DNA of 64,000 nucleotides from a virus (lineage: Duplodnaviria; Caudoviricetes). The first letter of the stretch is position 1. Every line of letters begins with the position of its first letter. The notes under the pieces are model-generated. The model was not told the origin of the DNA. It saw only the letters and a program-made list of their open reading frames with translations, and ran no database searches. Position numbers and translations under genes: made by a program. The stretch is taken from IMG/VR virus record IMGVR_UViG_3300028048_000054; one strand, 5' to 3'. Shown in pieces: positions 11,412-34,452 of the stretch.

Positions 11412-14378
11412 ATGAAACTTTTAAACCAAATTTTGAACAAGATTAGTTCTAAAAAATTTAACCAAGTACACGATTCTTTAGGGGCTTTGAAATTAATTGC
11501 CTCAGCATTAACATCAGATTCAGACATTTTAAGTTCTTTTTGTGTACTAGCATTTGATGAAGTACCAAACAGAAACTTTACCACAAAAGAATACATTAAC
11601 AGAAAAGCAGATGCTAAAAATGGCTTAAATTTAGTACAAAAACACTTAATCGCCAAGGAAGTATCTAAATTACTTAAAGATGCTTCCGCTTTTTATGACT
11701 CAGAACTGCCAAATTTAATTAAAACCCAAGCAGATTTCAAAAGACCTGAAAATGTAAAAGTATTCAAAACAGCAAAATTTGGTGATGTGGCCTTGATTGA
11801 CAATAAATACCATCTTGTAAACCCATTAACAAAAACAGTAACAGCCGAATACATTGTTTTAGCAGCAGATGCTAATTTCGCTAAATTACACGAACTTATT
11901 GCTAAATACAGAGACGAAAAAGATGTAAAATTAACCGAATTAGACGGTCAAATGGTTTTAACAGGGGCTCCAGAAGTAATTAACGAACTTGAACACCTGA
12001 TTAAAGACATTGGTTACTACTGTGAAGCCGTAGATGAATCAACTGGTGTAGAAGGTGAAATTCCAGAATATTCATTAAAAATTTTTACAGATATGAAACA
12101 AGCAGAACCTGAATTTGATATTGAAAAAGCAGCGGCAAAACATAAACAGGTTGGTGAAGATTCTAAATTTTCATACTGGTTACAATTAGAAGACAACTAT
12201 GAAGATGAGGGGTATTTAGATAGTAAAAAGGTTGGTGACCACGTAGGTTTCTTCTATGTAACAGAAAAAGGAACTCAAGCACCAGCACTATTGGTTTCAC
12301 AATTAGGTTTTTCTGGTGATGGTTTAACAGCACAACGAACCTATCCTATGAAGAGCAAGGAACCAGGAAAGACATATTTGTATGAAGAATATGGTTATAC
12401 CGATGATGATTTTGCCGAAGTATATAATTTCTTAAATGATGGGTTAAAAAGTGTATCTCCTGAAATGAATAAGAAAAATTTAGATGGGTTGACCGTAGAT
12501 AATATTGATGCCACAAACCCAAATTTGGAAAAAGACAATCCAATGTTAAATTCAGAATCCGCAAAGGAAGACGTTGTGGAAAAAACAACATCGGCTCAAG
12601 AAGATATTGATAAATCTGCTGAAGAAAAAATTGATTTTGAAAAAGAATTAATGGACGCTGGAGAATCTGAAGGTGCCAAAGATAAAGTTAATGAAACACA
12701 ATTGGCAATGGGAAAAGAAGTAGAAAAAGAACATACAACCAACCCAGAAATTGCCGAAAAAATCACCAGAGACCACCTTGAAGAAATTCCTGATTATTAC
12801 ACTCACTTAAAAGAAATGGAAGATAATGCGAAGAAAAATGATGCAGTTAAATCTTCCTATGCCCCATTTATGACAGTGGATGCAACAATGAAAGAAGAAA
12901 TTAAAATTTATTCTGGTGACCATTTTATTGGTACTTGTAAAACTATTCAAGCGGCATTTGAAAAGAGTTCTAACGAATTTGCATATGACGGGAATGAGGG
13001 TGCAAGAACTACACATAAAATCTATGAAGATGAAAAAATTACTATCACAGCAGAAGACCAAACAGATGAGTACTTTGTAACACTCTATGTAGGTGGTTTA
13101 GACCAATATCCAGTTCACGGTAAATCAATTAATAAAGAAAAATTAATGGCCGATGCTGATAAAGTAAATTTTGCCGAAACTGAAAGTGAAGAAAATCCTA
13201 GATTAAAAGAGTTTGGTGTAACACTTGCAATGTTGGCAAAAGCAGACGAAGAAGCAACAAAAGTATTAAAAGGCGGTACAGACCCAGAAGGAAAAGCAGA
13301 AGCACCTGTAGAAGCAGCAACAAAAACAGAAGTAACAAAAACAGCAGAAGATGTGGAAGACAATGTTTGGGTTGTTGAAAAAACAAGTGCACCTACAATT
13401 GATGACCAATTAACATTAGATATTTTCTATGTTGTAAATAAAAATACACACGTAGTTGCTCACGATGCAGGTTTTGAACCTTTCCTTTTTCCAACACAGG
13501 AAGATGCACAGAAACACGCAGATAAATTAAATAGTCAAAAAGAAGCATCAGCAAAACCAGAAGTAAAAAAAGAAGCAGGTGAATCTTATGGTTGGGTAGT
13601 TAATTCCGAAGATGCCTGGAATAAACTTATGCTTTGGGAAGAAACCGTTGGTGCCGAACAAGCATTAAGAGATGTAGCAAAGGCAATGGGTGACGAAGAG
13701 TTATCAGAGTGTCTCGCTTATATTTTTAGAATGAATGATTTTAAAGAAGGTTGCTCTGATACTGATGATAGTGATGTAGAATCTGCTAAAAAAGAAAACA
13801 TTGAAAAGAAAGCAGATGATGAACTTAAACAATTCGATATGAAACAAGAGTTAGATGGTCAGAAAGAGTTTGAAAAACAAGATGACTTTTCTCAAGTTTC
13901 AGTTCCAGAAGAAAAAGAAGATACATCAGAAGTAACAGAAACAATGGAAGCCAAACCAGAAGAAACAAAGGGTGAATCATTTTCAGCGTCAGAATTTGGA
14001 AATAATATGGCTTATATTCAACAAAATAAACCAGAAGAATTTAAGTCAATTATGAACAATTTGAAACAACTAATGGTAGGTGACCAACAACCAATTTATG
14101 ACTTTTTAGAGAACTGGGCTTCTCATAATTTCCAAGATTTTACAGCAATGACCAGAGAAGACCCCACCTACGCAAGACACTCACAGTATCAAGAACAATT
14201 AAAAAATAATGTTCTTCCAAAATTAAAAGAAATGTCTGAATATAAACAGGCAATGGAAGAAAAAGTGTCTGCGGAAAAAGGTAATGTAGAGGCTTCTGTA
14301 AGAGAATATGATTCTTCTGACCCAGAAGATGCCGCTGTATACAACCATAATGGAGAAGACGAAGGGGAAGAGGATTAA
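11412..14378 (+). CDS. large acidic modular protein, probable internal head/cargo polyprotein; contains a DUF5661-like module
   Basis: QLAMGKEVEKEHT..PEIAEKITRDHLEEIPDYYTHLKEME at about 12690-12821. Many KxA/VxA motifs separate globular blocks. Confidence 0.6.
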   Translation: MKLLNQILNKISSKKFNQVHDSLGALKLIASALTSDSDILSSFCVLAFDEVPNRNFTTKEYINRKADAKNGLNLVQKHLIAKEVSKLLKDASAFYDSELPNLIKTQADFKRPENVKVFKTAKFGDVALIDNKYHLVNPLTKTVTAEYIVLAADANFAKLHELIAKYRDEKDVKLTELDGQMVLTGAPEVINELEHLIKDIGYYCEAVDESTGVEGEIPEYSLKIFTDMKQAEPEFDIEKAAAKHKQVGEDSKFSYWLQLEDNYEDEGYLDSKKVGDHVGFFYVTEKGTQAPALLVSQLGFSGDGLTAQRTYPMKSKEPGKTYLYEEYGYTDDDFAEVYNFLNDGLKSVSPEMNKKNLDGLTVDNIDATNPNLEKDNPMLNSESAKEDVVEKTTSAQEDIDKSAEEKIDFEKELMDAGESEGAKDKVNETQLAMGKEVEKEHTTNPEIAEKITRDHLEEIPDYYTHLKEMEDNAKKNDAVKSSYAPFMTVDATMKEEIKIYSGDHFIGTCKTIQAAFEKSSNEFAYDGNEGARTTHKIYEDEKITITAEDQTDEYFVTLYVGGLDQYPVHGKSINKEKLMADADKVNFAETESEENPRLKEFGVTLAMLAKADEEATKVLKGGTDPEGKAEAPVEAATKTEVTKTAEDVEDNVWVVEKTSAPTIDDQLTLDIFYVVNKNTHVVAHDAGFEPFLFPTQEDAQKHADKLNSQKEASAKPEVKKEAGESYGWVVNSEDAWNKLMLWEETVGAEQALRDVAKAMGDEELSECLAYIFRMNDFKEGCSDTDDSDVESAKKENIEKKADDELKQFDMKQELDGQKEFEKQDDFSQVSVPEEKEDTSEVTETMEAKPEETKGESFSASEFGNNMAYIQQNKPEEFKSIMNNLKQLMVGDQQPIYDFLENWASHNFQDFTAMTREDPTYARHSQYQEQLKNNVLPKLKEMSEYKQAMEEKVSAEKGNVEASVREYDSSDPEDAAVYNHNGEDEGEED

Positions 14379-15079
14379 TGGAAGTAATTAAAGTAAAGAC
14401 AATTCAAGAATTGCCAGATGCAGTAAGAGATGAGATTAGAAGGCTTTATCTCGAAGACGGGATGAGCCCAATTCTCATTATCAAACAAATCGAAAAGAAT
14501 TTTGGATATGCTTTACCAGGTCTTCATACTTTAGTTCAATATATCAAAACATTGAAACCAGAGTTGTCAAAGGAACCAGAATTATCAGTAGAACTTCCAG
14601 ACGACAATGAAGAACCAAAACCAACAGAATTAGCCCCATTTACAGGTAAGTCAACAACAATCGACATCTCATCAGTTAAATCTCAAAATGAAACACTTAA
14701 AGAATTATTAAAACATAAAATTGAATACTTACAAAATAAATCATTAAGTGAAGAGTTTGATAAAGATTCAGAACAGATTTTACAGAGATACATTGTTGAG
14801 TTCTCAAAATTAACACAGAACGAAGTCAAAATTAAAGACGAGTTCAAAGATTCAGATAAAGTAGCACTTACTGATGTAAAATACTATATCAACAAAATAA
14901 TGTCCAGTGTTAGAATTTGTCTATCAAAACACTGCCCAAAAGAAGTTGATAGTATATTTAAAGATTTAAAAATACAATTAGATTATGCGCTCCGTGATAT
15001 AGTGGACCCGCACATATATTCAAGTCAGGCCAGTATAGATTACGAGCAAAATTTAAAGGAAAAGGAAAATGAAAAATAA
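14378..15079 (+). CDS. possible terminase small subunit / N-terminal HTH protein
   Basis: IQELPDAVRDEIRRLYLEDGMSP..IIKQI resembles the DUF3486/Mu gp27-like HTH, followed by helical coiled segments. Confidence 0.45.
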   Translation: MEVIKVKTIQELPDAVRDEIRRLYLEDGMSPILIIKQIEKNFGYALPGLHTLVQYIKTLKPELSKEPELSVELPDDNEEPKPTELAPFTGKSTTIDISSVKSQNETLKELLKHKIEYLQNKSLSEEFDKDSEQILQRYIVEFSKLTQNEVKIKDEFKDSDKVALTDVKYYINKIMSSVRICLSKHCPKEVDSIFKDLKIQLDYALRDIVDPHIYSSQASIDYEQNLKEKENEK

Positions 15080-16526
15080 ATTTGATGTAAGATACCAATT
15101 CACAAAAATTGCACGTGACTTATACAACGTGTATGATTCCACCACAAATACTGGTGCGTTTCTTAACACAAAAGACTTATGTGACGATTTAGTCCAAAAG
15201 CGTGGTGGTGTAGCCCTCACACAAGACATTTATGATATGCTTGAAGGTGCTGGCAATGGTCATACTTTTGGCATTACAGAAAGTGCGTTAGAAATTAATA
15301 AAGCAGCAAGTGCAGACGGTATTGAACCTTGGAAATTGGCAGAAGTAGATGGCAAAGAAGTATTTGTATCTGCTTCAACTGGTTTAGAAGTAGAAGATGA
15401 TGATAAACTAACAAAAAAAGCATCATTAAATAAACCCGTTCATACATATAAGGTAGCAATTCATACAGGTACATTAGCAAAAACAGCCAGAGCGCACGAT
15501 ATTCTAATTGGTGCTGGGTATACTGATGAAAATATGTATATTAATCCAGCCAACCCAGATACTGTAGTAGTAACGGTACAAGATGATAAATGCCCATCAC
15601 AAGTTCAAAAAGCAATGTGTGATAAAATGAACGGCGGTTATGTAGATGTAACAGCAGATGACATTGAGTGCTGCCACGATTTCTGCCCTTGTGGTTGTGA
15701 GCCTTTTGACTACCCAGATATGAAAGCAGATGAGTTTGTGTTGATTATTCCTAACAACAAACCTATGTTCGCAACAAGTGCAGATTCATTAAGAGATTAT
15801 GCTACAGCAAACAATTTTGATAATTTTAAAGTATGTGCTGCCGATGGTTCTTCAGTATATGATTCAGCAATGAGAGATGCTATTAAAGAAATTGATGAAG
15901 CAATGCCACAAAATCAAAAAACAGCAGAACAGACATACAAAATTCGCCTTAAAAAAGAGCACGAACAAGATGCCCCAGAATTGGCTGGTAAAGTATTAGA
16001 ATGGACTATGCCACAAATTTTAGAGGAAATTAATAAGGACCACAGTGACCAATGGACTAATTATGATGCTTCAGATTGGCAAGAAGGGTTAAATGAGTGG
16101 ACTTGGTATGAACCAGTAGAAGAAAAAACAGCAGACTTAACAACTGATAAAACTGTGTTTGAAGACGAAAATACTGGAGAAGTTTTTACCAAAGAACAAT
16201 TGGACGCGGACCCAAATAAAGCAAACAGAACACTGAAAACTCACGAAGTAAATTCTCAATACATTAATGATATGTTCAAAGAAGCATCAACAATTGAACT
16301 TTCTTTAGCACAAAAGAATTTATTAAGAGCAGCATTTCACTACTGTGGTTTTGAAAAAGTAGCCTACTTATCTGAAGATTCTTTCTCAATTAAAGCAGGT
16401 GACGCAGTAATTACAGTAGATAATGACAAAGCATCATCTTTACCATTTGCCTTATTCAATGATGTGGCATTAGGTGAAGATAGCAAAGAAAAAGAAGATT
16501 TAAAATCCGATTCAATTTTGGGGTAG
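15069..16526 (+). CDS. acidic modular protein, probable internal head protein
   Basis: KIA, KAA, KKAS, KTA x3, KEA and KVA motifs. Trp-rich module WTMPQILEEINKDHSDQWTNYDASDWQEGL lies between two KTA sites. Confidence 0.6.
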   Translation: MKNKFDVRYQFTKIARDLYNVYDSTTNTGAFLNTKDLCDDLVQKRGGVALTQDIYDMLEGAGNGHTFGITESALEINKAASADGIEPWKLAEVDGKEVFVSASTGLEVEDDDKLTKKASLNKPVHTYKVAIHTGTLAKTARAHDILIGAGYTDENMYINPANPDTVVVTVQDDKCPSQVQKAMCDKMNGGYVDVTADDIECCHDFCPCGCEPFDYPDMKADEFVLIIPNNKPMFATSADSLRDYATANNFDNFKVCAADGSSVYDSAMRDAIKEIDEAMPQNQKTAEQTYKIRLKKEHEQDAPELAGKVLEWTMPQILEEINKDHSDQWTNYDASDWQEGLNEWTWYEPVEEKTADLTTDKTVFEDENTGEVFTKEQLDADPNKANRTLKTHEVNSQYINDMFKEASTIELSLAQKNLLRAAFHYCGFEKVAYLSEDSFSIKAGDAVITVDNDKASSLPFALFNDVALGEDSKEKEDLKSDSILG

Positions 16527-26712: not shown

Positions 26713-26939
26713 GCACTATATCACACATTAAACACGTAGTAAGAACTGTTCAACCAGTTTTAGAAGAAGTAACACAAGCAACAATGAACTGCCTAGAAGA
26801 GTTGCGTGCCTGTGGCATTTTTACCGAAGAAATGCAAGATTTAGCGAACGCAATTGAGTGTTTGGAAAATACACACAGTAATTTAAACGACAGATTAATT
26901 GCTTTCAGAGAATATGAAGATTTGAACGAGGATGACTAA
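26709..26939 (+). CDS. small helical hypothetical protein
   Basis: ATGA overlap with the terL stop; stop overlaps the portal start. Confidence 0.55.
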   Translation: MSTISHIKHVVRTVQPVLEEVTQATMNCLEELRACGIFTEEMQDLANAIECLENTHSNLNDRLIAFREYEDLNEDD

Positions 26940-28651
26940 TGCCTAAGAATTTAATTACGGGTAAAAAGAGTACACCTATTAGTAAAAAATTTAGTAAGTT
27001 TGCTAACCCTACATTTATTACAAAACATAATAATATTTTAAGTGGAACTGGTTTTGGTAAAGAAGCTTTTTACGATACAGAGTCCACGATTCCTAATTTT
27101 TACACACCAGAATTAACACCTGATACTTGGTTACTGCCTCGTTCCAGAGCCGAGATTTTAAGATGGTGTCGTTTATTCTTTAACTTAGACCCGTACATTA
27201 ACTCGATTTTAACAATGCACGCTCAATATCCAGTGTGCAACTTCAGATTAAAATATAAAGACAAAGAAACTGAAGCATTTTTTAATAGAAAACTTTTTGA
27301 TAATAAAGAGTTCAGTTGGATTGATTTCTTGGAACAAGTAATGCTCTCATACTGGAAACTTGGTGAAGCAGTGGTATGGGGTGATTTTAACGAAGCCAAA
27401 GGAACCTGGAATAGTTTCTCATTAATTGACCCATCTTTAATTGAATATAAAGAAGACCCGATGTCTGGTGAAGTAGAGATGTCAATTATTCCTACAAGAG
27501 AATTGAAACAGATGCTCGCCGAGGGGTTAAAACAGGGTAGAAGTGATATTCCAGTAGAATATATTCGGTGTGTACAAGAAAACCAAAAGATTCCATTAGA
27601 CGCAACTGGAACAGAAGCAAACTACTTAACTGGTAAAAAATATTCTCCTGCCAAAGTATTTATGCTTGCTCGTAAAACAGACCCAGGTGCTACTCGTGGT
27701 ACTCCAATTATTCAATCACTTTTCAAAACACTTATCTATTCTGATAAGATTAGACTTGCTCAAATTGCTATCGCCGACAGACTTCACTTGCCAATGGAAA
27801 TTTGGTCAATTGGTGAATATACAGGCGACCCAAATACATCAATTATTCCAGATGATGGGATGATTGCTAATGTCCGTGAAGCAATTAGAGAAGCCACAAT
27901 GCAACCTCCATTTTCAATTTTCGTTCCACCTTACATTAAATATGAAGCAGTAGGTGTGAACGGTAAATTATTGTCAGTCTATGAAGATTTAGGATATGTT
28001 GAGAACTGTATCTTCGTAGCATTGGGTGTAAATAAGAATTTAATTTTAGGTCAAGGTCCCTCTTTCTCATCAAGTAAACAGACATCATTATTCAAATTGA
28101 TTAAGATGTATAAAATGATGCGCTTGAAATTGGAAGCCTTTATTAAACGGTATATTATTCTTCCAATTGCTAAAGCCAATGATGTTAAAGATGAGTATGG
28201 TGACTATGTAGTACCAGACATCGATTGGGAAGAAAGTTTAAACCCAGAACAAGATGTAGAGAAATTTAACAATATCCTCAAATTGTGGGATAAAGGTTTG
28301 GTTTCCACTACTACATTATATGAATACTTCCCTGGCAAATTAGATATTAACCTTGAAAAACAAAGACTGGAAGAAGAAAAATTAACAGTATTTGATAAAG
28401 GTACAGATAGATTAGGAAGTAAAGCACAACGCGCTGATTTGAAGAATAATGATGCAAATAAGGGTAAGAATCCAACTCCAAGTGATGGCTCTAAACCAGC
28501 CGAAAACTTACCACCCCCATTGGAAGGTGGTGTAAAGGACGAGGGTGAAGGCCCAGCAGGTCCAGATGCTCCTGGTGGTGAAGATAAAGCACCAGAGGGT
28601 GGTGAAGGACCAGAAGCCCCTGATACGAACGCAGGACCAGAAGGAGAATAA
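26939..28651 (+). CDS. portal protein
   Basis: Follows terL. WCRLFF..DPYINS, YWKLGEA, RGTPIIQSLF, IFVALGVNK.LI.G; low-complexity acidic C-tail. Confidence 0.88.
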   Translation: MPKNLITGKKSTPISKKFSKFANPTFITKHNNILSGTGFGKEAFYDTESTIPNFYTPELTPDTWLLPRSRAEILRWCRLFFNLDPYINSILTMHAQYPVCNFRLKYKDKETEAFFNRKLFDNKEFSWIDFLEQVMLSYWKLGEAVVWGDFNEAKGTWNSFSLIDPSLIEYKEDPMSGEVEMSIIPTRELKQMLAEGLKQGRSDIPVEYIRCVQENQKIPLDATGTEANYLTGKKYSPAKVFMLARKTDPGATRGTPIIQSLFKTLIYSDKIRLAQIAIADRLHLPMEIWSIGEYTGDPNTSIIPDDGMIANVREAIREATMQPPFSIFVPPYIKYEAVGVNGKLLSVYEDLGYVENCIFVALGVNKNLILGQGPSFSSSKQTSLFKLIKMYKMMRLKLEAFIKRYIILPIAKANDVKDEYGDYVVPDIDWEESLNPEQDVEKFNNILKLWDKGLVSTTTLYEYFPGKLDINLEKQRLEEEKLTVFDKGTDRLGSKAQRADLKNNDANKGKNPTPSDGSKPAENLPPPLEGGVKDEGEGPAGPDAPGGEDKAPEGGEGPEAPDTNAGPEGE

Positions 28652-29865: not shown

Positions 29866-32800
29866 ATGGCATTTTTAAAATTAGGTTCAACTTTACAGAT
29901 TTTACAACCAAATCAAGTGTTGTATAAAACTGCTTCTAAAGAATTAGATAATGTCGTGGCTGAAAAGAACGACAACTTTACCTATTTCCAAACTATTGCT
30001 CTACACTCTGATGTCCCAAATCTTAATGGGGACATCTTTCCTTTAGATGAATTAAAAAAGTCTTACAAATCATTTATTGGTCGTGGGTTATATTTAGACC
30101 ACAATGCCCAATCAGTGGCAAATGCAGTAGGTAAAGTATTTGATGCTAAGTTAATTGAAATTCCAGGGGCTACAGAAGAAGAGGGGAAATATGGTGTTGT
30201 ATGTCTCTGTGGTGTTGATAAAACAACACACCCAGACATCGCCAAAAAAGTAGCAAGTGGGGTAATTGATAGTGTTTCAATGGGTGCGTCCGTAGGTTCT
30301 TGTACTTGTGGAATTTGTGGTGTAAAATGCTCAACCCCAGAAGAATTTTGTGTACACTTACAACATCAAGGGCAAGTAGACCCAGATACTGGTAAGAAAT
30401 GTACATCAATCAACCACGATGTATCTTTCACCGAATTATCATTAGTAGGTGTTCCAGCAGACCCATACGCCAAAATGCAAAAAGTATTCGCAGACTTCGT
30501 AGGTGGTATAACAAAAATTGCTGGTGAAGAAAAACAATTTTTAGAAAAGTTCTCATTTAGTATTCCTTGTGGTAATGAGAAACTTTGCGAAATGATTTAT
30601 AACCTTTTAGACGGTTATAAAAAACAAGGAATTATGGACTTGTCGGCTGATGGGTCTATATTAAAACTTTCTGTAGAAGCCAAAAGCGAAGCAGAAGCAT
30701 TAAAAAAATTAGAGTCAATCAGCCAAGAACAGGGGTTGGACGTTGAAAAACCTCTGAAAAAAGAGGAGAAATCAATGTCAGAAGAAATTAAACCTGTTGA
30801 AGAACAAGTAGAAAAAACTGCTGATGTAGATGAAGCAGCAGCGACCGAAGAAGCACAAAAAATTATCGACAATTTTGAACCAGTTCGTCTTGAGATGGAT
30901 GGTGGTGATGGTACATATGCATCAGTTTTAGTTGGAGATAAAAATTCAGATTTTACAGCCTGGATTGATGTTACAATTAAAAATGATGATGTAGAGTGCG
31001 ACTGGAACCAATTTATTACAAACTTACGTGATACAAACGAAGTAATTAATAAAAAAGTTCGTGATGATAATAAAGTATTTGAATTAGCAACAAGTGAAGC
31101 AATTCAAACTTTACAAGATAAAAATATTATTACTCAAGATGAGAAAGGTTTTTGGCATTGGGCAACCAAACAAGCCGAAGTAAACCCAGATTTGCAAGAA
31201 GTACAATCTTCAAATACTCAATCAAATGAGGTAAAAGACGTGAAAGCAGAAGAAAAGAAAGAAGAAGTAAAACAGGAAAAAACTGCTGCTATGGTCCCAC
31301 CATTCACTGACACAAAAGCACCTGCTGCTCCTGTAGCAGACCCCATTGTGGCCCCAGTGAAAGAACCAGAAGCCAAGCCAGAAATTCCTGCTCCTGCCCC
31401 AGAAGTGAAACCTCTGAAAGATGCTCCATTGGCTGATGCTCCTATGGGTGATAAACCTTTAGGTGACAAACCTATGGCAGATAAACCAGCGGTCCCACCA
31501 ATGGCAGACGGAAAAGAGAAATTTGAAGAAGTTAAACCAGAAGCACCTGCCGACAAAATTAAGACAACACAAGATGCTGCTAAAGCATTATTAGATGCCT
31601 TAAAAGCAGGTGAAAATGCGGACCTCAAAGCCCTTGAAGATGTCATTAATTTCTTAAAAGCAGATAAAAAAGAAGCACCTGCTAAAGAAGAAAAGAAAGA
31701 CGATAAAAAGGACGAAAAGAAAGACGACAAAAAAGAGGACGCTCCTAAAGCAGAAGAAAAGAAAGACGCTCTTAAAGAAGATAAAAAGGACGATAAAGAA
31801 CCTGCTAAGGAAGAAAAGAAAGACGACAAACCTGCTGAAGAAAAGAAAGCGGAAGCCGAACCTGCTCAAGAAGTAGTGGCCGAACCTACAACCGAAGAAA
31901 TTCCTGTAGAAGCCAAAGAAGAGAAGGAAGAAGCAAAAGAAGTGGAATCTGAAGCCAAACCCGCTGAAGAAGTGAAAGAAGTAGAAGCGGCAGCAGATAC
32001 CAAAGAAGAAGAAAAGAAAGAAGCAAATTGTGAAGCCGAAGTGAAACCCACTTTTGCAAATGTAACAAGAGTTTCTTTACTCAAAACCGCAAATATTTTA
32101 GACAGCAAATGGGTATTCCACTTGAAAGGTACAAACAAAGTTGCTTGCTTGAGCATCAAAAACTTGTTACCTGGCGTAGCGGAAAAAGTCGCCTATTTAA
32201 CTTCTAAAGAATTTTACAACGAGATGATGAGTACATTAGAAAAACACGCCGAACTCAATGAAGGTGCCGTAAAAGAAATTACAGCAAACTTCAACGAAAA
32301 AGTGAAAGTGGATTCTGACGAAAAGAAATCTCAAATTGCGAAAGCCACCAATAAAGTTAAAGTAGAAACAGATGCGAAGAAAGTATCCGATACTGCTTCC
32401 AAAGTAACAGAATCTTTAACTGATGATGGTAAAGCACAAAAACAGGACAAGGTGAACTCCAAAGAAGATGCTGGGGCAATTGAATCAGCGTCTAAAAAAG
32501 CACCTGCTGAAACTGATATTAAAGTAGATGCGGCTATGGAATCTAAACTGAAACAAGTAACAGCAGCCTTAGAAGCCAAAGAAGCAGAACTTAACCAATT
32601 GAAGTTACAGCAAGCATTAGAAGCCAAAACTGCTAAAGCACGGAACATTGTTTCTATGTCAATCAAAGCAGGGTTGGTGAAATGCAATGAACAATTTAGA
32701 CAGGAAGAATTACTCAAACAAGCATCACCTGTAAAAGCAAAAGAAGAAGCGATGAAACGCACTGCTGATGCTATGGTGAAAGACTTATTGGGTATGTCCG

Positions 32801-32949
32801 ATGAAGAATTGGATAGACAAGCATCTTATCTGTCAAATTTTAAGGTTGAGGCGGAAGTAAAACAGCTTAAACCGATTAAAATAGAAGCCTCATACAACGA
32901 AAGTAATGAGGAAAGTATCATCAAAGCATTAGCCGCCGAGATGATGTAA
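29866..32949 (+). CDS. prohead maturation protease fused to scaffolding protein
   Basis: PNLNGDIFP..EL..SYKSF.G..LYLDH...AVGKV, VSMG, CxxC insert, FTELSLVGVPADPYA. Long charged Pro/Lys/Glu-rich region and C-terminal coiled coil; precedes the capsid genes. Confidence 0.88.
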   Translation: MAFLKLGSTLQILQPNQVLYKTASKELDNVVAEKNDNFTYFQTIALHSDVPNLNGDIFPLDELKKSYKSFIGRGLYLDHNAQSVANAVGKVFDAKLIEIPGATEEEGKYGVVCLCGVDKTTHPDIAKKVASGVIDSVSMGASVGSCTCGICGVKCSTPEEFCVHLQHQGQVDPDTGKKCTSINHDVSFTELSLVGVPADPYAKMQKVFADFVGGITKIAGEEKQFLEKFSFSIPCGNEKLCEMIYNLLDGYKKQGIMDLSADGSILKLSVEAKSEAEALKKLESISQEQGLDVEKPLKKEEKSMSEEIKPVEEQVEKTADVDEAAATEEAQKIIDNFEPVRLEMDGGDGTYASVLVGDKNSDFTAWIDVTIKNDDVECDWNQFITNLRDTNEVINKKVRDDNKVFELATSEAIQTLQDKNIITQDEKGFWHWATKQAEVNPDLQEVQSSNTQSNEVKDVKAEEKKEEVKQEKTAAMVPPFTDTKAPAAPVADPIVAPVKEPEAKPEIPAPAPEVKPLKDAPLADAPMGDKPLGDKPMADKPAVPPMADGKEKFEEVKPEAPADKIKTTQDAAKALLDALKAGENADLKALEDVINFLKADKKEAPAKEEKKDDKKDEKKDDKKEDAPKAEEKKDALKEDKKDDKEPAKEEKKDDKPAEEKKAEAEPAQEVVAEPTTEEIPVEAKEEKEEAKEVESEAKPAEEVKEVEAAADTKEEEKKEANCEAEVKPTFANVTRVSLLKTANILDSKWVFHLKGTNKVACLSIKNLLPGVAEKVAYLTSKEFYNEMMSTLEKHAELNEGAVKEITANFNEKVKVDSDEKKSQIAKATNKVKVETDAKKVSDTASKVTESLTDDGKAQKQDKVNSKEDAGAIESASKKAPAETDIKVDAAMESKLKQVTAALEAKEAELNQLKLQQALEAKTAKARNIVSMSIKAGLVKCNEQFRQEELLKQASPVKAKEEAMKRTADAMVKDLLGMSDEELDRQASYLSNFKVEAEVKQLKPIKIEASYNESNEESIIKALAAEMM
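31660..31860 (+). repeat. low-complexity KEEKKDDK-type coding repeats in the scaffold
   Basis: APAKEEKKDDKKDEKKDDKKED...PAKEEKKDDKPAEEKK; 5-aa P-x-x-D-K repeats also at about 31420-31490. Confidence 0.7.
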
Positions 32950-33513: not shown

Positions 33514-34452
33514 ATGGAAAACTTTGCTAAAATGAACACAATTGAAAAAGAAGCAGCATTAAACGCAATGTACGCTTCTCCAAACGGTTTGCAAAAAATT
33601 GCTGCCGTAATGTTGAACCCTATCATTCGTGATTTATTACACGAAGGTCGTGGTCGTCAATGCTTAGCCATCGATAAACTTCAACAAGGTATGGATGCAA
33701 CATACGATTCTGATATTTCAGCCAAAGCCTGCGTATGCAGTGCTGACGGTGTACCTCAATTATCAGTAATTGAATCAGGTCGTTTCATTGTACCAACCTT
33801 CCCTATCGGTGTACAAGCATCAATCAAATGGGTAGAATCAAACTATCGTAAATTTGATATGATTAACCGCACACAAGAACGTGCGAAATCAGCCTTACAA
33901 TCAATCGAAGATAAAAGAATCTTTGATTTAATTGCTTTCTCATCAAAGCAACACTATGCTGCACAACAAACAACAGAAACTGGCCGTGTAACCCTGTTAG
34001 ACTTAGCGAAAGCCAAAGCCAAACTCGAAAAAGGCCGTGTACCTGCTGCTAAAATGATTATGACACCAATCCGTGCAGTAGACGTGGAATTACTTTACAA
34101 TGGTGCTACAGCAATGGGTCCTCTGTTCTTACCTCAAACCTCTGAAGCAAACGTAAACAAAGGTTTAGGCAAAAACATCTTGGGCTTAGACATTGTAACA
34201 GTACCAGATGGTGACACAGTAACTCGTGTAATCAACGGTAAAGAAGTGATTGAAGACCTTCCTATTATCTCGGATAACGAAATCTATGTCTTAGGCCGCC
34301 CAGAAATGGTAGGTATTATGACAATTCGTCAAGACGTGTTAGTAGAAACCCAAAAATGGGTACGTGGTTTAGAAGACTTGTTCGCAATCTATGAAATCGT
34401 AGGTTTCGCAGTCCGCTATGCCAAAGGTCAAATCAACGTACACGTTAAATAA
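33514..34452 (+). CDS. major capsid protein (HK97 fold)
   Basis: Synteny and highly expressed codon style. KIA.VM.NPI...L, VPTFPI, FDMINR.QERAK..LQ..ED..IF, YEIVGF.V motifs. Confidence 0.88.
   Translation: MENFAKMNTIEKEAALNAMYASPNGLQKIAAVMLNPIIRDLLHEGRGRQCLAIDKLQQGMDATYDSDISAKACVCSADGVPQLSVIESGRFIVPTFPIGVQASIKWVESNYRKFDMINRTQERAKSALQSIEDKRIFDLIAFSSKQHYAAQQTTETGRVTLLDLAKAKAKLEKGRVPAAKMIMTPIRAVDVELLYNGATAMGPLFLPQTSEANVNKGLGKNILGLDIVTVPDGDTVTRVINGKEVIEDLPIISDNEIYVLGRPEMVGIMTIRQDVLVETQKWVRGLEDLFAIYEIVGFAVRYAKGQINVHVK

Follow-up and report, generated by a model that had tools for sequence, protein, structure and literature searches.

We examined a stretch of 64,000 nucleotides of viral DNA (Duplodnaviria; Caudoviricetes; IMG/VR record IMGVR_UViG_3300028048_000054), referred to here as the window, and within it the gene at 29866-32949, whose product P0001 combines a predicted head protease with a scaffold region. 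An earlier note made from the letters of the window had singled out a Trp-containing block in this protein, at 30814-31176, as a foreign-looking cargo domain that rides on the scaffold and is excised at maturation. Comparison with related proteins suggests that this phage may load exchangeable passenger proteins into its capsid by way of the scaffold. The features of the gene are listed below; the block is called the module, and the short peptides found at module boundaries are called joints. Abbreviations in the list are aa, amino acids; ORF, open reading frame; and pI, isoelectric point.

29866..32949, + strand: gene for the protease/scaffold fusion protein P0001, 1027 aa (ORF call and PHROG match)
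29866..30489, + strand: protease domain with probable assemblin/T4 gp21 fold, aa 1-208 (invariant residues, AlphaFold2 model, Foldseek)
30490..30765, + strand: small folded domain after the protease, aa 209-300 (kept in orthologs P0003-P0092 except the fragment P0080)
30763..30777, + strand: possible internal start, GAGGAG, a 6-nt spacer and the ATG of Met304 (conservation)
30802..30825, + strand: left joint EQVEKTAD, containing the EKTA of the earlier note (matches the joint consensus)
30814..31176, + strand: module, aa 317-437, 121 aa, 13.7 kDa, pI 4.3 (in frame with ORF 29866-32949)
31165..31179, + strand: right boundary TKQAE, containing the TKQA of the earlier note (fits the core K-x-A-(D/E/G))
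31267..31290, + strand: joint-type site VKQEKTAA in the invariant linker downstream of the module (conserved)
32101..32946, + strand: third domain, aa 746-835, and C-terminal tail, aa 836-1027 (conserved in orthologs)

The module corresponds to an exact, in-frame indel, and the place in the protease-scaffold protein where it lies is a hypervariable cassette site. We recovered 120 homologous proteins of P0001 from metagenomes, on contigs of up to 187 kb, and compared the parts of P0001 with its orthologs by segment-wise BLAST. Four parts (aa 1-208, 209-300, 746-835 and 836-1027) were conserved throughout the orthologs. The module was restricted to the near-identical group P0003-P0008, to P0028 and to the distant P0094 and P0095, in which it has 42% identity. 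P0009 and others, with flanks 96-100% identical to those of P0001, carried different modules at the module site, and in P0019-P0021 the site was empty and read …IKPVEEQVEK-TDLQEVQSS…. The DNA of the empty-site relative L001, which reads EEQVEK-TDLQEV, aligned with the window as far as 30818, and the alignment resumed at 31179, placing the limits of the indel (window ~30819-31178) within a few bases of those given in the earlier note. The DNA of the right boundary repeats that of the left joint imperfectly (AACAAGTAGAAAAAAC vs AACAAGCCGAAGTAAAC); the module is flanked by an imperfect direct repeat of ~17 bp, and the two ends of the insert encode EQVEKT and KQAEVN. In P0094 and P0095, whose proteases are 44-46% identical to that of P0001, the homologous module lies at another position within the scaffold protein.

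These comparisons also bear on whether the block might be a constant structural part of the scaffold, such as a core-forming or size-determining domain. It does lie in the scaffold polypeptide and is well folded, but it was absent from 61 of 68 orthologs, some of which have 96-100% identical flanks, and empty-site versions exist. Because orthologs with 95-100% identical flanking domains lack it, the block is an indel and not a structural part conserved in all orthologs, and we regard a constant structural role as extremely improbable. We then cut the region between two anchors at the joint motif in these 68 orthologs and clustered the pieces. This gave 23 piece clusters, with ~20 real unrelated modules of 65-250 aa that occurred in arrays of 0-5; the module of P0001 was carried by 7 of the 68. 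All module clusters were acidic, with pI values of 4.2-5.0.

The block itself was much as the earlier note had described it. The Trp-containing stretch FTAWIDVTIKNDDVECDWNQFITNL…GFWHWA is present with 4 Trp residues, starts with KTA (aa 317-319) and ends with KQA (aa 435-437), and in ORF 29866-32949 codon 317 begins at 30814 and codon 437 ends at 31176. Its globular nature was borne out by an AlphaFold2 model built with the family alignment, which had a mean predicted local distance difference test score (pLDDT) of 94 and a predicted template modelling score of 0.85. The folded core covers aa 323-432 (nt 30832-31161) with the topology α-β4-α2-β2, and both boundary motifs lie outside the fold. 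The claim that the scaffold is otherwise low in complexity was mistaken, as P0001 also has the protease, two further folded domains and a conserved helical tail at aa 836-1027.

The module proved to be a genuine domain. Its family is widespread and unnamed, and consists mostly of free small phage proteins. A search of 1.84 billion representative proteins gave 160 matches at E <= 0.001, of which 55 had E <= 1e-10, and the 147 listed family matches were re-scored after dropping one spurious mucin-like protein (P0130, a repeat protein of 4644 aa with '11 stretches', rejected as a family member). The stand-alone homologs that the earlier note had proposed to look for do exist: 105 of the 147 re-scored matches were <= 200 aa long, and most family members were free-standing phage proteins of ~100-150 residues. 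A leader motif was lacking in 100 of these 105 short free-standing homologs. P0133 and P0144 are examples of free-standing homologs. The family alignment has a conserved core, SVLV-DKNS-F-AW-DV…DWNQYIF, with one invariant Trp. Free-standing copies in phage contigs lay among small genes, near SSB and dUTPase genes or near a gene for a Cas4-like nuclease.

Searches for a known function of the module gave no assignment. Pfam returned only a sub-threshold match to Fn3_Dep-1 (19.6 bits vs a cut-off of 26), which we took as chance, and PHROG, NCBIfam and PDB sequence-profile searches gave no match that indicates a function. The best match of the model by Foldseek against PDB and BFVD had an E of ~0.09-0.2, a wide structure comparison with VIA-align peaked at a Z of 5.4 (SpoVG), below the meaningful level, and comparison with the ESM Atlas reached a best score of 0.78, with no fold or function assigned. 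No match was obtained by tblastn against 50,697 GenBank phages, and no paralog of the module was found elsewhere in the window. An intein or homing insertion was rejected as its identity: the module had no Hint, splicing or homing-endonuclease match in Pfam, PHROG or NCBIfam, and its model is that of a simple domain.

Members of the family also occur in other arrangements. One small metagenomic contig carries two free-standing homologs in tandem (L012:1-195 and L012:213-539), and four metagenomic multi-module proteins (P0126, P0127, P0146 and P0156) have module homologs between repeated (F/Y/M)-A-K-G-G motifs, six of which were counted in P0146 and four in P0156. (F/Y/M)-A-K-G-G may be the joint signal of another processing system.

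To follow the history of the module we compared the window with L002, the locus of P0028, which has another module upstream of this one. Nucleotide identity between the two was 95.9% in the module (91.7% at third codon positions), 70.6% in the protease (52.4%), 75.6% in the third domain (60.0%) and 71.9% in the tail (53.6%); across the conserved flanks the range was 71-79%. The high identity started exactly at the joint codons EQVEK, such that the left joint travels with the module. These values indicate that the module moved recently between diverged phages by lateral exchange.

A neutral or selfish passenger, which is merely tolerated as a domain-sized insertion in a disordered acidic spacer and has no role for the phage, would be expected to behave in part as this module does. 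Some genes with an empty site are themselves intact and have intact neighbours, and the module is therefore dispensable for assembly; the content of the cassette turns over fast; and the GC content at third codon positions was 0.165 in the module vs 0.25-0.40 elsewhere in the P0001 gene. However, the ratio of nonsynonymous to synonymous substitution rates (dN/dS) between the window and L002 copies of the module was ~0.20, a sign of purifying selection, and core residues were strongly conserved over the 160 family members. Furthermore, every insertion was in frame and composed of folded domains, no homing or intein domain was detected, and the acidic character common to all modules points to a common constraint. 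We therefore consider a passenger without a role improbable.

The protein that carries the module appears to be a protease-scaffold fusion of the P2 gpO/herpesvirus UL26 kind, as judged by a match to a head protease, invariant residues, structural matches of the model and a position between portal and capsid genes. The profile match was to PHROG 18299 (phrog_18299, 'head maturation protease'), at aa 42-198 with an E of 5.7e-20; in Pfam and PDB sequence searches the protease region had no match. H79, S138 and E190 were invariant in an alignment of 26 diverse protease homologs, down to 33% identity, and S138 lies in an SMG motif; on this pattern, H79 and S138 are the predicted catalytic residues. 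An AlphaFold2 model of aa 1-300 had a pLDDT of > 90 over aa 40-200. The best Foldseek matches of the protease model in PDB were T4 gp21 (5jbl) and six herpesvirus proteases, with probabilities of 0.97-1.0, although these matches were weak by other measures (E ~0.01-0.05; template modelling (TM) score 0.3-0.5). Across the same 26 homologs C148, C151, C162 and H164 (aa 148-164, window ~30307-30357) were invariant as well, and these residues look like a small zinc-binding insert within the protease domain.

In the small domain that follows the protease, aa ~225-290 were modelled with a pLDDT of ~80-85. This part gave weak Pcc1/Gon7-like fold matches (probability ~0.99, TM ~0.5 on target), and it may be a small dimerisation module. 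The third domain and the tail had 63-100% identity in P0003-P0074 and 40-47% in P0075-P0092, and were absent from the truncated clusters P0078, P0079, P0081, P0082 and P0091. The tail, aa 836-1027, is the putative scaffold by its position and the architecture of the protein. It contains a site, LD(R/K)QASYLS, located 42 aa before the C-terminal end, that was kept in 46 of the 46 proteins compared. Met304, between protease and module, was shared by 85 of 90 orthologs, and in 5 of the 5 loci with DNA its codon was preceded, at 6-7 nt, by a purine run resembling AGAGGAG (in L006, AGAGGA). This Met may mark a nested start for a scaffold protein that lacks the protease, comparable to that of lambda C/Nu3. 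Initiation there would place the module at the head of such a shortened scaffold, as its first domain, and the short form would be produced in excess.

The surroundings of the gene are as follows.

26939-28651: portal gene, upstream of the P0001 gene (portal PHROGs, E down to 7e-19)
After the portal gene and directly upstream of the P0001 gene: ORF of 261 aa (ORF list)
Between the P0001 gene and the major capsid gene: ORF of 174 aa (ORF list)
33514-34452: major capsid gene (phrog_2522, E 7e-22)

The P0001 gene thus sits between the portal and major capsid genes, and no separate scaffold gene is found there. The order portal, 261-aa ORF, P0001 gene, 174-aa ORF and capsid was the same in L001, L002, L023 and L024. 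The portal ortholog of L001 (L001:946-3729) differs from the 570-aa portal protein of the window in having 927 aa with intein-splicing and HNH matches, and the DNA alignment placed a ~1.07-kb insertion in the L001 portal gene at window ~27726.

The joints at the module boundaries follow a common pattern. From 54 distinct junction 16-mers we obtained the consensus E-(N/Q)-(I/V)-E-K-(K/T)-A-(D/E/G). At positions outside the search pattern, E was present in 39/50, N or Q in 38/50, I, V or M in 41/50, and D, E or G after the Ala in 49/50. The codons at the motif differ between sites, which indicates that the peptide is conserved and not a DNA signal. In P0001 alone, given the abundance of K, E and A in this protein, the two K-x-A motifs are not significant by themselves; their weight comes from the comparison with relatives. 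The site in the downstream linker was kept as QEKTAA or QEKTAE in P0001, P0003-P0029, P0031 and P0032, and a group of ~70% identity has ADKKAS there. The homologous module of P0094 and P0095 has V-(Q/N/H)-K-K-A-(E/D) on each side. Taken as a peptide, the joint motif fits a recognition site of the fused protease, and cleavage at the joint of the module could give peptide starts such as TADVDEAAATEE, ADVDE or DVDE.

The motif was not confined to the scaffold protein. The pattern [ED]K[KTEQ]A[DEGA] occurred 7 times, vs 1.06 expected, in the 15 ORFs at 11412-34452, a count reached in 0 of 1000 shuffles, and in the window's other 30 ORFs it was seen 0 times vs 0.32 expected. Three sites lie in other genes of the head region.

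13578..13763, + strand: module at aa 723-784 of ORF 11412-14378, preceded by KKEAG and followed by ENIEKKAD
15918..16127, + strand: ~70-aa Trp-rich insert at aa 284-353 of ORF 15069-16526, bounded by QKTAE and EKTAD
33541..33558, + strand: joint-type motif IEKEAA, aa 10-15 of the major capsid protein

The module at 13578-13763 was 68% identical to M21, a module in the scaffold cassette of P0073, and 67% identical to part of a 763-aa gene product of L023; modules are therefore common to the scaffold and to the large acidic ORFs upstream of the terminase gene. The insert at 15918-16127 has no counterpart in the orthologs of G002 and G003, two complete relatives, and the empty site of G003 (L019) reads MPQ-EKQADL; it is a second indel with K-x-A bounds, like that of the scaffold module. 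In L023, a related cassette module (M0) is encoded by a separate 245-aa gene, behind a ~20-aa leader that ends in TKKA-N. Among 7 related loci, the residues before IEKEAA vary and those after it are conserved. We had considered this N-terminal motif as independent proof of cleavage but downgraded it to weak support, since it is kept only in the close lineage.

The joints could also be read without any cleavage, as flexible and recombination-prone linkers, with modules that are never cut out and work attached to the scaffold. In one variant, the attached modules would act late in the infected cell, for instance by hiding the protease or scaffold from sensors of the host or by binding a host factor; in another, they would act within the procapsid and then leave or be degraded with the scaffold. 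The imperfect direct repeat that flanks the module is in keeping with such linkers, as are recombination scars inside linkers (for example 'TAELEPTVSQETIQKCKELDEQ' in P0022), the boundaries that have no motif and the poor conservation of the module's right boundary. In addition, the family consists mostly of ordinary free cytoplasmic proteins without a leader, and phage prohead proteases and virion assembly proteins are reported to be able to trigger or evade immunity by the cyclic oligonucleotide-based antiphage signalling system (CBASS). However, a mere linker would not be expected to keep its peptide motif while the codons vary, or to show this motif in non-homologous proteins of the head region only. 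A related motif also stands on both sides of the homologous module in P0094 and P0095, despite their distant proteases, and the same polypeptide has a fused predicted protease that looks active by its residues. On balance, we judge permanent attachment unlikely.

In the reading that we favour, the block is an accessory domain that folds on its own, has been exchanged laterally and sits in a cassette site, and it would be borne by the scaffold as cargo and freed by the protease; we put the probability of this reading at roughly 60%. As a covalent part of the scaffold, and possibly also of the nested scaffold that would begin at Met304, the module would enter every procapsid at scaffold copy number. 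The joint peptides would be recognised by the fused protease with its probable assemblin fold, and the modules would be freed during maturation. New modules would arrive by recombination within the short repeated DNA that encodes the joints, with selection keeping the joints in frame and cleavable. More speculatively, the freed acidic proteins of 7-30 kDa might remain in the head, leave together with the DNA and have an early role in the next host. The most far-reaching form of this proposal is that in this phage lineage the protease-scaffold serves as a natural cargo loader, with a recombination hot spot that takes interchangeable domains bounded by the protease's cutting site, so that the capsid would be filled with up to hundreds of copies of strain-specific free proteins, which would be injected with the DNA as first responders (for anti-defence or host take-over) before phage gene expression. 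We offer this form tentatively, as a possibility that we think somewhat doubtful.

Several points weigh against cargo release from the scaffold. The joint motif was defined after the junctions had been seen, and many junctions share ancestry and hence are not independent. Of the two bounds proposed in the earlier note, the left, EKTA, belongs to the conserved motif common to the 54 junctions, but the right one is less constant: the near-identical P0004-P0007 have this module as well and lack the KQA at its right-hand end. No joint motif or K-x-A was present at the M6-M2 boundary or where the last module of most arrays ends. The capsid-protein motif was not kept in the two distant lineages checked, L023 and L024. 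As to the specificity of the protease, neither the rule of Glu at P1 (T4-type) nor the Ala-Ser rule (herpesvirus) could be assigned to the joints from their sequences. Finally, all modules are acidic, unlike the internal proteins of T4, which are basic, and acidic modules might be expelled during DNA packaging rather than kept.

If the joints are cut and the modules retained, the locus would be a natural version of scaffold-mediated cargo loading, known to us so far only as a device engineered into P22 particles. Phages would then have a new way of pre-loading proteins for the next infection, in addition to targeting peptides of the T4 type and fusions to MuF or portal proteins. With its catalogue of ~20 small unnamed domain families in rapid exchange, the cassette site shows a pattern expected of counter-defence factors, and it is a defined place where foreign proteins might be brought into a phage head. 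Even without cleavage, the site shows domain-level mosaicism inside an essential assembly gene.

In its architecture, the carrier resembles the protease-scaffold fusions of phage P2 (gpO), lambda (C/Nu3) and the herpesviruses (UL26/UL26.5), in which a serine protease of assemblin fold at the N-terminus is joined through a linker to a scaffold domain at the C-terminus; the present protein has a predicted protease of probably this fold, a linker, a putative scaffold tail and a possible nested start. Herpesvirus proteases cut after Ala at (V/L)-x-A-S, including a site near the C-terminus of the scaffold, with which the LD(R/K)QA-SYLS of the present protein, 42 aa before its end, can be compared. 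We know of no exchangeable globular domains in the linker of P2 gpO, lambda C/Nu3 or UL26/UL26.5.

The internal proteins IPI, IPII and IPIII of T4, together with Alt, enter the prohead by a capsid-targeting sequence and are cleaved by gp21 (PMC9026906, PMC9958956). Like the proposed cargo, they are small accessory proteins of the prohead core that are freed by an assemblin-fold protease at a short motif and delivered with the DNA, and their loci are highly variable between related phages. They differ in being encoded by separate genes, with an N-terminal targeting peptide and the motif (L/I)-x-E, whereas the present modules, known from sequence alone, are acidic and embedded in the protease-scaffold with the joint E-K-x-A-(D/E/G). 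The module of P0001 has neither a targeting peptide of its own at an N-terminus nor a separate gene, being internal to the scaffold polypeptide. Giant phages offer a similar comparison. Propeptides of the ejection proteins of phiKZ, 201phi2-1 and SPN3US are removed by the prohead protease at A-X-E (PMC10052503, PMC5694885); T4-type enzymes cut after Glu, as in the A-X-E rule of SPN3US (PMC10052503). These phages resemble the present proposal in that an essential prohead protease acts on many proteins inside the head, at a short motif specific to the lineage, and in that propeptides are cut at multiple sites. The ejection proteins, however, are the products of separate genes with N-terminal propeptides and another motif, in contrast to modules internal to a scaffold.

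A parallel in domain organisation is found in the polyvalent proteins described by Iyer et al. (2017; PMC5512222), which were proposed to be packaged, processed by an embedded peptidase and delivered to the host. They are combinatorial chains of domains that are also found alone, and are encoded beside virion genes. The cassette proteins likewise have several unrelated domains per chain, which are also found alone and occur in variable combinations. The polyvalent carriers are MuF, portal, virion RNA polymerase and similar proteins, and the text that describes them contains 'prohead' once and 'scaffold' never (PMC5512222). Eight cassette-rich orthologs and the module family had no Pfam match at E <= 0.01, including to the LPD domains of PMC5512222, and the present modules differ from polyvalent proteins in being small and without recognisable enzymes. 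We found no account in the literature of exchangeable domains inside a protease-scaffold protein, within a coverage that was incomplete and is not proof of absence. Functional analogues are the engineered fusions of cargo to the P22 scaffold that load virus-like particles (reviewed in PMC9962691). In these, as proposed here, cargo is fused to the scaffold and loaded at scaffold copy number; they are man-made, however, and the protease-scaffold of this phage would be their natural counterpart, with release sites and an exchangeable repertoire.

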